In this document: one piece after another, positions 13,783-15,823 of the stretch
Numbering within the stretch: position 1 is the stretch's first letter
Layout of the letters: each line of letters starts with the position of its first letter
Source of the DNA: Candidatus Nanopelagicales bacterium
GTDB lineage: Bacteria > Actinomycetota > Actinomycetes > S36-B12
DNA length: 28,451 nucleotides
Assembly (NCBI GenBank): GCA_044341115.1
Contig: JBIISH010000001.1
Location: 1-28,451, forward strand
Direction of reading: 5' to 3'
Translations under genes and position numbers: made by a program
The notes under the pieces: model-generated
Seen by the model: only the letters and a program-made list of their open reading frames with translations
Told to the model about the DNA's origin: nothing
Databases searched by the model: none

Positions 13783-14643
13783 ATGCGCGTACTCATCACC
13801 GGCAGCAACGGTCAGCTTGGTTCTGAACTCGTTGCCCGTTACACCGCCCGCGGCGACGACGTTTTTGGGTTTGATCTACCAGAGATCGACATCACCGATC
13901 CGGCATCTGTTGCTGCCGCATTCGAGGTGGCTGCACCTGAGGTGGTGATCAACTGCGCAGCGTGGACGGCTGTTGATGCAGCGGAAGAAAACGAAGAAGG
14001 CGCACACCTGGTGAATGGTGTGGGTGCTGAAGTTTTGGCCCGTGCGTGCGCCGCGAGCGATGCATGGATGGTGCAAATCTCCACCGACTACGTGTTCTCC
14101 GGAGATGCGACCCTTCCCTACCGCGAGGAATCAGCACCAAACCCACGATCTGCCTACGGCCGCACCAAGCTCGAGGGTGAGATCGCGATGCGCGATGAGC
14201 TCAAGGGCCGCTACTACATCGTGCGCACCGCGTGGCTATACGGAATGAACGGCTCGAACTTTGTGAAGACGATGATGCGGCTGGAGAAAGAACACGAAAC
14301 TGTGCGCGTGGTTGATGACCAGTTTGGCCAGCCAACTTTCGCAGCTGATCTTGCGATGCAGATCATGCTGCTCATCGACGCGCACCCGCCGTCCGGCATC
14401 TTTCACGCAACTAACTCTGGTTCGGTTTCCTGGCACGGTTTCACCCAAGAGATTTTCCGGCTCATCGGTGCTGACCCTGATCGGGTGATCGCTGTTACCT
14501 CGGAGGAGTTCATCCGGCCGGCGCCGCGGCCCGCGTATTCAGTGCTCTCGCACGGTGCGTGGGAGAAAGCTGGGCTTGCGCCTATGCGCGATTGGCGTGA
14601 GGCGATTGCTGATGCGGTGGCGCAGGGCATCTCACCTGAGTGA
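13783..14643 (+). CDS. rmlD: dTDP-4-dehydrorhamnose reductase
   Basis: ITGSNGQLG, NCAAWTAVDAAE, ISTDYVFSG, YGRTKLEGE, VVDDQFGQPT and RPAPRPAYSVL motifs. Confidence 0.96.
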   Translation: MRVLITGSNGQLGSELVARYTARGDDVFGFDLPEIDITDPASVAAAFEVAAPEVVINCAAWTAVDAAEENEEGAHLVNGVGAEVLARACAASDAWMVQISTDYVFSGDATLPYREESAPNPRSAYGRTKLEGEIAMRDELKGRYYIVRTAWLYGMNGSNFVKTMMRLEKEHETVRVVDDQFGQPTFAADLAMQIMLLIDAHPPSGIFHATNSGSVSWHGFTQEIFRLIGADPDRVIAVTSEEFIRPAPRPAYSVLSHGAWEKAGLAPMRDWREAIADAVAQGISPE

Positions 14644-14666
14644 TCAGGATTTTCTGGTGAGTTGAT

Positions 14667-14825
14667 TCACTCCTGCCACGGAAACTCCTCAAGCCCATCT
14701 GCCAGCGTGCCGTCAAAAAGTGCAACCTCTGCAAGGTACTCACGCATAACTTCAGGTGAAGCCTCTCGCATCTGGCGTTTGGCTATCTCCATCTGTTCGC
14801 GAAACGAACTCTCTTCTGAGGTCAC
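14667..14825 (-). CDS. 52-aa acidic protein resembling the C-terminal half of MazE-type/RHH antitoxins
   Basis: (M)TSEESSFREQMEIAKRQMREASPEVMREYLAEVALFDGTLADGLEEFPWQE. The GTG start overlaps the upstream mini-ORF stop (GTGA). The tail D.TLADGL resembles antitoxin tails such as M. tuberculosis MazE7 (EWEGTVGDGL, from memory). Confidence 0.6.
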   Translation of the reverse strand: MTSEESSFREQMEIAKRQMREASPEVMREYLAEVALFDGTLADGLEEFPWQE

Positions 14826-14947
14826 AGATCCACATCCAGAACCTGAGAAATGTCGTCTCGAAGAGCATCGCCGTCGATTGCGGGGACATTCCGCCACCGC
14901 TCAAGAAGGGCCGTGCTCGTCATGCGGGGTTGGGAAAGTTCATCCAT
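14822..14947 (-). CDS. 41-aa acidic protein resembling the C-terminal half of actinobacterial Phd/VapB antitoxins (not in the ORF track)
   Basis: MDELSQPRMTSTALLERWRNVPAIDGDALRDDISQVLDVDL, translated by hand. -10 TAGATT (14959-14954) + 6 nt + ATG. The TAG of that hexamer is an in-frame stop, so there is no N-terminal extension. Confidence 0.62.
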   Translation of the reverse strand: MDELSQPRMTSTALLERWRNVPAIDGDALRDDISQVLDVDL

Positions 14948-14986
14948 AGGGCCAATCTACAAGGATGTTGCACCCGTGGATAGGGA

Positions 14987-15823
14987 TCAGATTGCGATGG
15001 CATCCAGAACGTCGGCCACTCCCTCACCAGGGATTCCCTGCGTGGTGAGGTTCGCGAAAGCTTTCACGCCATCAGGCGCGGAATCCATCGCAACGCCAAG
15101 ACCGGCCCAGTTGAGCATGTCTGTGTCGTTCCACGAATCACCAATGGCGATCACGCGCGCGGGATCAACATCGCGCCTGGCGCACAGCTCGGTCAGCATC
15201 GTCGATTTGTTCACACCCTTGGGGCCGATGTCCATCCAGGCGACCTCGGCGATCCCGAAGATGACGGAGTGGAAGCCGAGGTGGTCGGCAACTTCCCGGA
15301 AGCCGCGCTCGGCGTGATCGTGGCTGCGCACAACCAGGCGCACGCACGGATCGTTAGTCATTTCAGAGAGTTCCGCCTCGCGAATGGAAAGACCCAGTGC
15401 ACCGGTATCAAAAAGATGCGTGGTGGTGAACTCACCGTGGATGTCTTCCACGGCAAAGATCGCGTCGGGAATCATCTCGAGCAGTGGCGCGATCAACGGA
15501 CTGGGATCGAAGGTGACCGCTTCGATAATTTTGACGGTTTCCACGCTGGCCAGAATCGCGCCGTTGCTACACACCACCAGATCGTCGATACCAGCAGAGC
15601 GCGCAACCGGATAGGTGGTGCTGAAGGAACGCCCAGTTGCGAGGGCAACTTTGATACCGGCTTCTTGCACGCGCTCGATCGAGCGCATCACGCGCTCATC
15701 GACGGTGCCCATGTGATGGGTGAGGGTGTCGTCGATATCGAGGGCGATGAGTTGCGGCGTCCAGTCGATCGGCAGCGTGCCGTTGTGTTTGGGGCCGTGA
15801 AGTGCGTGCGGGAGTTCGGTCAT
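14987..15823 (-). CDS. Cof-type HAD-IIB hydrolase
   Basis: [32 protein letters not shown] and [21 protein letters not shown] motifs. ATGA overlap with serS. Confidence 0.92.

Follow-up and report, generated by a model that had tools for sequence, protein, structure and literature searches.

Antitoxin tails in the HAD–rmlD gap of a lake-water actinobacterium: a probable deletional remnant of a composite toxin–antitoxin locus

Organization of the locus

The stretch of DNA analyzed here, hereafter the window, comprises 28,451 nucleotides (nt) of contig JBIISH010000001.1 from a Candidatus Nanopelagicales bacterium, a lake-water actinobacterium according to sample labels. In the 343-bp gap between a gene for a HAD/Cof-type hydrolase and the convergent rmlD gene it contains two short overlapping open reading frames, ORF1 and ORF2 (Table 1). 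They encode the toxin-binding tails of antitoxins from two toxin–antitoxin (TA) families, VapB and MazE, and we contend that they are probably what recent deletions have left of a composite TA locus. An original prediction for this DNA had instead proposed a dedicated cassette of toxin-neutralizing peptides.

The coordinates and sequences given in that prediction for a 41-amino-acid (aa) ORF1 coupled by a GTGA overlap to a 52-aa ORF2 were confirmed, and a recount of charged residues again gave acidic peptides (9 D/E against 4 K/R in ORF1, 13 against 5 in ORF2). The letters TAGATT, followed by 6 nt and the ATG at 14947, lie at 14959..14954 as described, and the in-frame TAG four codons 5' of this ATG and the HAD stop codon 39 nt upstream were both found. 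It was likewise borne out that neither peptide carries a DNA-binding domain and that no toxin gene adjoins them. The frame of ORF2 can be extended in the ORF listing to an upstream GTG, which gives 76 aa; public gene callers start it so as to yield 52 aa (P0004, P0003) or, from an internal ATG, 41 aa (P0005). Given that the exact ORF1 sequence is absent from the protein collection, ORF1 is left uncalled by gene callers, and no ORF1 homologue of 23-72 aa turned up in a word-index search.

No Pfam or NCBIfam model matched ORF1, ORF2 or the extended 76-aa frame even at E<=10. Both collections are blind to these peptides because their models cover the N-terminal domains. Of the proposed likeness to antitoxins, the profile similarity was therefore not seen in Pfam or NCBIfam, while the family identity was established through direct homologues.

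Table 1. Features of the HAD–rmlD gap and its flanks in the window, contigs spanning its junctions, and the intact genes of the same gap in the sister genome G002
Feature	Coordinates in window	Strand	Length	Remarks
ORF1	14822..14947	minus	41 aa	ATG at 14947, stop at 14822
ORF1 as vapB (Phd/YefM-type antitoxin)	14822..14947	minus		looks like vapB minus roughly codons 4-42; short head MDELS plus toxin-binding tail
ORF2	14667..14825	minus	52 aa	GTG at 14825, in GTGA overlap with ORF1 stop
vapC head, now ORF2 start	14815..14825	minus		GTG start in GTGA overlap plus next codons (VTSE); GTGACCTCAGA, identical to G002 vapC start
Tail of RHH MazE-type antitoxin	14667..14804	minus		about codons 42-86 of 86; fused in frame to vapC head
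Spacer with -10-like TAGATT (14959..14954)	14948..14986	minus	39 nt	possibly degenerate leaderless vapB promoter/operator
mazF head remnant (tentative)	14644..14679	minus	11 codons	frame from GTG overlapping ORF2 end to conserved mazF stop
HAD/Cof-type hydrolase gene	14987..15823	minus	278 aa	upstream flank; Pfam Hydrolase_3 E=2.7e-40
rmlD (dTDP-4-dehydrorhamnose reductase)	13783..14643	plus	286 aa	convergent downstream flank; Pfam RmlD_sub_bind E=1.9e-99
Weak terminator-like hairpin for rmlD	14635..14648	plus		CCTGAGTGATCAGG then ATTTTCT; consensus scan; 5-bp stem
Logan contig X3, spanning junctions	14619-15400			
Logan contig X4, spanning junctions	14650-14945			
Logan contig X5, spanning junctions	14599-14853			
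Logan contig X8, spanning junctions	14691-14934			
G002 mazE-like			86 aa	weak RHH matches at residues 5-40
G002 mazF			115 aa	PemK E=1.7e-19
G002 vapB			78 aa	PhdYeFM E=4.1e-10
G002 vapC			134 aa	PIN E=1e-8; start in GTGA overlap with vapB

Origin of ORF1

Residues 6-41 of ORF1 are identical at 33 of 36 positions (92%) to residues 43-78 of the 78-aa VapB of G001 and G002, the two other species of the genus, in agreement with the earlier proposal that ORF1 is the C-terminal half of a Phd-type VapB. A DNA search of 40 related genomes located the ORF1 region in both of these species, where 118 nt share 87% identity with vapB codons 43-78 and the first 11 nt of vapC. The peptide opens with MDELS, and 27 vapB homologues open with M[END]EV[ST]V; judged from these N-termini, ORF1 looks like a vapB gene that has lost roughly codons 4-42 through an internal deletion in frame.

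VapB of G002 matches PF02604 with residues 1-65, of which ORF1 retains just about 1-5 and 43-65, so that the N-terminal Phd/YefM fold, which serves dimerization and operator binding, is not retained, and the C-terminal toxin-binding tail of a bona fide Phd/YefM antitoxin is present. Like a Phd/YefM-type VapB, ORF1 ends in the GTGA overlap onto a vapC start and has the nearly identical tail, but it lacks the N-terminal domain, the Pfam match and a vapC gene behind it. The cognate PIN-domain gene that would lie directly 3' is absent except for its first 11 nt.

Origin of ORF2

ORF2 is a fusion in which the 11 nt GTGACCTCAGA of vapC (start and first four codons) precede homology to mazE, the gene of a ribbon-helix-helix (RHH) antitoxin, that resumes at codon 43. 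Residues 9-52 match residues 43-86 of the 86-aa G002 MazE with 29 of 44 identities (66%); the G002 protein finds the ORF2 tail as a tblastn query (E=6.6e-18), and in blastn 81 nt of ORF2 DNA are 72% identical to G002 mazE (codons 43-69). In a phmmer search of 1.84 billion representative proteins, the full-length 86-aa relative P0007 matches ORF2 over residues 38-85 (E=1.9e-12). The identification of ORF2 as the C-terminal half of an RHH/MazE-type antitoxin is thus upheld.

The N-terminal RHH domain is not part of ORF2, whose homology begins at about codon 42 and which has no RHH match; in G002 MazE itself the RHH matches (residues 5-40) are below threshold. The MazF-binding C-terminal tail of this antitoxin type is present. 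The PemK/MazF toxin gene expected to overlap the 3' end of ORF2 is absent, as the stops of ORF2 and rmlD lie only 23 nt apart. Compared with the RHH MazE of actinobacterial mazEF pairs in the HAD–rmlD gap, ORF2 keeps the pattern AK.QMR...EY.AE...D...DGLE..PW, but it is without the ribbon-helix-helix N-domain, borrows its start from vapC and is followed by at most about 10 codons of mazF.

Related loci

The corresponding gap of G002 holds intact mazE, mazF, vapB and vapC, and that of G001 carries vapBC. Aligned by blastn, the window and the G002 locus share four pieces, namely the HAD end, the vapB tail with 11 nt of vapC, mazE codons 43-69 and the rmlD end. The order of the vapB-tail and mazE-tail pieces is reversed relative to G002, and a single deletion from a G002-type locus was rejected because these middle pieces are permuted.

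Of the family's 16 genera, 11 contain the arrangement HAD-mazE-mazF-rmlD, at about 28 loci in all, and family synteny makes the HAD hydrolase gene the conserved left border and rmlD the conserved right border of a TA hot spot. A mazE-like gene was present in 40 of the 173 family genomes, and vapB homologues of the ORF1 type in 117 of them, at many other loci; within the HAD–rmlD gap such homologues were seen just in the genus of the window. Among loci fetched by HAD query, the gap is empty in many genomes (18-94 bp) and measures ~615-650 bp where it contains mazEF. Two genomes have mazE without mazF there (G133, and G180 with a gap of 305 bp), and the gap of G136 (233 bp) has no recognizable gene. 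Because empty, mazE-only and full mazEF states all occur, the gap is, on gene content, a gain/loss hot spot for TA genes with toxin-first-lost intermediates in other lineages. MazE similarity is decoupled from HAD similarity, as in the pair G002 and G119 (69% for MazE, 48% for HAD), and this mismatch suggests cassette exchange.

A probable intermediate was found on a 1008-bp contig (JGI 3300059473). It carries a partial gene, a 40-nt spacer, a 78-aa PhdYeFM gene, an overlapping 140-aa PIN gene (P0017), a 33-nt spacer and P0008, a tail-only mazE ORF of 51 aa that is 60% identical to ORF2 in phmmer. The P0017 VapC is 89% identical to that of G002 and begins with VTSE, as ORF2 does, whereas the G002 protein begins with MTSD; the 40-nt spacer before the Phd gene matches the 39 nt before ORF1. 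The best account of the locus in the window would be derivation from a P0008/P0017-type locus (vapB-vapC-mazE tail) by loss of the vapB N-domain, vapC and mazF. The vapBC-first order, as opposed to that of G002, could have arisen by a separate insertion event or by duplication with subsequent deletion. If mazF is intact behind P0008, the latter would be a MazF antidote that lacks a DNA-binding domain and is expressed from a vapBC operon.

Another tail-only ORF, P0006 (ENA ERZ22067504), has 51 aa, its own start MNSYGPS and two substitutions in the tail; it is a close variant. P0009 and P0010 were rejected as further cases, being contig-edge or frameshift calls of full-length mazE beside PemK. 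Searches for related loci with ORF2 as query covered metagenome and genome collections, those with P0008 the metagenome collection; neither gave a confirmed relative, although records close to the own genome may be missing from these collections.

At L079 2880-3168 (an ENA ERZ25039462 contig) a 1-nt frameshift, which may be a long-read assembly error or real, splits mazE between the RHH part and the tail, with an intact PemK gene alongside. Elsewhere in the family, tail-only (residues about 35-78), split or stop-interrupted vapB matches at G128:C269:7005-7121, G017:C43:18964-19092 and G126:C287:21503-21735 may represent further decayed vapB loci.

Occurrence of the truncated allele

No fewer than seven further assemblies or lake samples contain the truncated arrangement: the JGI contigs L069 and L070, the assembly GCA_041443065.1 and four Logan lake metagenomes (Table 1). 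L069 is 99.9% identical to the window, and L070 shows 0 differences from HAD through ORF2 and 23 single-nucleotide polymorphisms (SNPs) in rmlD, 22 of them synonymous. The sole variant inside the ORFs, 14707 G>A, causes the non-synonymous change T40M in ORF2 and occurs also in GCA_041443065.1 (P0003). G002-type alleles are represented in the same lake samples by loose ends that read intact vapB, vapC and the HAD-mazE promoter; because both forms are read in the same samples, the truncated and the G002-type forms coexist in lakes, in different populations.

An assembly chimera, or ORFs arising by chance, might be suspected from a fragmented metagenome-assembled genome and from an order of vapB tail before mazE tail that is permuted relative to G002. 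The junctions recur, however, in an NCBI assembly, in a pair of independent JGI contigs and in four further lake samples in Logan, an independent contig has the same order of vapBC followed by a mazE tail, and the homology E-values are far beyond chance. The truncated locus is thus not an assembly artifact, and an explanation by chimerism or chance is already refuted, with practically no probability left to it.

Upstream regions

In 27 vapB homologues a strongly conserved operator/-10 element, TATCACCGGTGATACACTG, is followed by 5-6 nt and then by the start codon. The resemblance of the spacer in the window to this vapB promoter is loose, reading TATCCACGGGTG...TAGATT, and when the spacer, together with the beginning of ORF1, was aligned by hand with the corresponding promoter and start of vapB, 19 of 27 nt matched. 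A profile of the 27 homologous upstream regions failed to recover the site in the window, local alignment preferring another place, and a scan with the sigma-70 consensus found no promoter.

Upstream of the vapB homologues L040-L068, the 48 nt before the starts contain a nearly invariant palindrome, TATCACCGGTGATA, that overlaps a TACACT -10 box and is followed by 5-6 nt and the start; it is kept between proteins that are just 60-70% identical. Such a pattern suggests that the transcript is leaderless and the operator conserved. Upstream of G002 mazE (L003 719-751) there is a direct repeat, CGGTATAC-GTT-CGGTATAC, with TATACT 7 nt before the ATG, and GGTATAC-like motifs also lie 5' of mazE in L079, L091 and L104. 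The repeat is likely an RHH operator on a leaderless gene.

Evolutionary scenario

We consider it probable that the HAD–rmlD gap of the window holds a recent deletional remnant of a decaying composite TA locus, without present function. The context is that of a degraded TA locus, with the same HAD–rmlD setting as the intact TA pairs of relatives and the toxin gone. Progressive decay from two full TA operons, the outcome named beforehand as contrary to the original prediction, is what was found in relatives. A dedicated neutralizing cassette "rather than a decayed TA locus" is not supported, in view of the four intact genes of G002, the family-wide HAD-mazEF-rmlD arrangement, the intermediate contig and the vapC-derived start of ORF2.

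Ancestrally, the family-wide state would have been HAD-mazE-mazF-rmlD, and a vapBC cassette would have joined the locus in this genus, so that the lineage leading to the window passed through HAD-vapB-vapC-(mazE tail)-mazF-rmlD. A deletion in vapB would have removed roughly codons 4-42, that is, the Phd/YefM dimerization and DNA-binding domain. Another in vapC, from codon 5 up to the mazE tail, would have fused the vapC start in frame to that tail, and mazF would have been deleted except perhaps for its first ~10 codons and its stop. The product would be a pair of toxin-binding tails that still have a start codon and are translationally coupled, probably under a promoter freed from autorepression. 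The gene order is observed in relatives, and from it we infer the deletion events and their sequence.

On this account the frames are intact because these events are young. It can also be speculated that each deletion had to keep the tail translated while the toxin was present, a toxin-safe order of decay; in-frame deletions are explainable in this way because a deletion made with the toxin still present must leave the tail translated. With both cognate toxins gone, the peptides would most likely be functionless and awaiting further deletion.

Selection on the tails and alternative explanations

Several points weigh against a functionless remnant. Of the 15 sites at which the ORF1 tail and G002 vapB differ, 13 are third positions, with non-synonymous divergence (dN) of 0.045 and synonymous divergence (dS) of 0.58, and the ORF2 tail differs from G002 mazE at 46 sites (13/6/27 by codon position), with dS saturated. 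Both frames are intact and both defining deletions are in frame, for which the chance under neutrality is ~1/9. The start codon, the GTGA coupling and the -10-like box at leaderless spacing have all been kept, as have the conserved tail residues of the MazE family: ORF2 from R43 on retains nearly all of the tail columns conserved in 32 full-length relatives (a column script scores it 15/20, the misses including junction columns before R43). The truncated allele is fixed across several lakes, and two other lineages likewise have a tail-only mazE ORF (P0006, P0008), which could indicate that the tail is kept on purpose. The order of the deletions is our reconstruction, the homology of the ORF1 spacer to the vapB promoter is suggestive and comes with a negative profile, and a cognate toxin could sit in the unassembled part of a genome that is 76% complete.

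For comparison, the HAD gene of G000 and G002 has a dS of 0.31 and a dN of 0.006 (98.7% aa identity). The mazE alleles are, by this sequence comparison, anciently diverged or exchanged, though their flanks are 93-95% identical. The truncated copies show one SNP across all that were seen, a non-synonymous one, and the coding-type divergence may predate the deletions. Coding-type divergence with no sign of neutral decay would fit very recent deletions and ongoing constraint alike, and these two are inseparable because there is almost no variation since truncation.

These same features (intact and coupled frames, a plausible leaderless -10 box, coding-type divergence and conserved MazE tail residues) count in favor of the tails being kept by selection as free toxin-neutralizing peptides, no longer autorepressed, that would blunt incoming VapC and MazF from mobile cassettes of co-occurring relatives or tune other chromosomal TA systems. 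The ORF1-type vapBC is widespread at many family loci and hence mobile, sister species whose VapB tail shares 92% identity with ORF1 live in the same lakes and carry vapBC and mazEF intact, and tail-only mazE ORFs exist in three lineages. C-terminal regions are the toxin-binding parts of characterized antitoxins (PMC4803016; PMC8593223), and an anti-addiction role has been proposed for orphan antitoxins (PMC7192599).

Such a role nevertheless seems unlikely to us, since two full operons demonstrably gave rise to the locus by deletion. The single ORF SNP is non-synonymous, divergence after truncation is nearly nil and hence carries no selection signal, the vapB operator/promoter is not recognizably conserved, and a search for RNA sequencing runs listed none. 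Toxin-binding tails are disordered in characterized antitoxins, and free disordered tails without a dimerization domain are expected to be short-lived. Antitoxins usually recognize their toxins specifically, and the other PIN and PemK toxins encoded in the own genome are only distantly similar to the cognate ones. The function earlier suggested, an anti-addiction or immunity module or else a tuner, is accordingly unsupported for this deletion derivative. A bolder version appears quite unlikely: the tails would form a constitutively expressed, DNA-binding-free two-peptide immunity cassette against VapC and MazF of the mobile vapBC and mazEF of sister species sharing its water, and tail-only MazE (P0006, P0008) would be a functional type of antitoxin that arises repeatedly, as opposed to debris.

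Toxin partners in the own genome

The own genome is 75.8% complete in 307 contigs, and family searches gave at least four PIN genes above the Pfam cut-off and one PemK gene. One possible explanation is therefore a split TA system, in which the tails serve relocated cognate toxins in the unassembled 24%. With G002 VapC as query, however, nothing better than E=0.17 was obtained in the assembled genome, and G002 MazF gave no match there. At the sole PemK locus (C81) there is a separate RHH antitoxin whose tail is unrelated, and at the PIN and PemK loci inspected no neighboring antitoxin resembled ORF1 or ORF2. As sister genomes moreover keep their toxins at the HAD–rmlD locus and not elsewhere, we regard a split system as very improbable.

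Comparison with known systems

In other bacteria, the degradation of TA pairs has left orphan antitoxins in abundance (PMC7192599). As in the Klebsiella survey of orphan antitoxins and degraded type II TA (PMC7192599), the window has antitoxin ORFs without a toxin in the context of full pairs, with the toxin lost first, and the same alternatives apply, remnant or anti-addiction. It differs in that both antitoxins are tail-only, that two TA families lie side by side and that one tail is translated from the start codon of a deleted toxin gene. That survey used criteria of 50-150 aa and an alignment of >=50 aa (PMC7192599), and ORF1 and ORF2 would be invisible to surveys of this type because they are too short.

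Chromosomal anti-addiction modules (Saavedra De Bast et al., 2008, as summarized in PMC4803016 and PMC7192599) are complete TA systems or full-length antitoxins for which neutralization was shown. Going by these summaries, the shared concept is a chromosomal antitoxin that neutralizes a toxin on a mobile element, whereas the locus in the window is known from sequence alone. What the locus in the window adds is the doubled, tail-only form with its use of the toxin's start codon, as orphan antitoxins and the anti-addiction idea are already established (PMC7192599; PMC4803016).

If the locus is a remnant, as is likely, it offers a clean natural case of how adjacent TA operons are dismantled, with toxins and DNA-binding domains going and tails staying in frame with their starts, and with stages of decay coexisting in related lake populations. 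It also illustrates tail-only ORFs that are missed by Pfam and NCBIfam and lie below the size considered in usual orphan-antitoxin surveys. Functional tails would represent a minimal antitoxin without a regulatory domain and directly support anti-addiction, which present evidence does not favor.

The rmlD-proximal end

In relatives the start of mazF lies close to the mazE stop, either a few bases ahead of it or immediately behind it, and in at least eight family loci the end of mazF, ...CCTGA, abuts the rmlD stop TCA. The window retains CCTGA|TCA, and the 11-codon frame that ends there is tentatively a head-and-stop remnant of mazF, the likeness of its head having been judged by hand comparison. 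The weak hairpin predicted for rmlD incorporates the rmlD stop together with the conserved CCTGA. The cassette is also bounded by two copies of CTGATC (14990..14985 and 14647..14642), a 6-bp direct repeat that had been proposed to regenerate an empty site. Its right copy lies in the conserved CCTGA|TCA, and empty HAD–rmlD sites in relatives do not read TGATCA, so that the repeat looks ancestral and not like a target-site duplication. An RNA element was rejected, as the single Rfam match, to a eukaryotic long non-coding RNA family, was far below the gathering score and the folding z was +0.5 against shuffled sequences.

The rmlD SNPs of L070 cluster in the 3' 520 nt of the gene (window 14118-14640), and the adjoining 900 nt (ORF2, ORF1 and HAD) are identical. 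This cluster looks like a recombination tract that ends at the rmlD stop.

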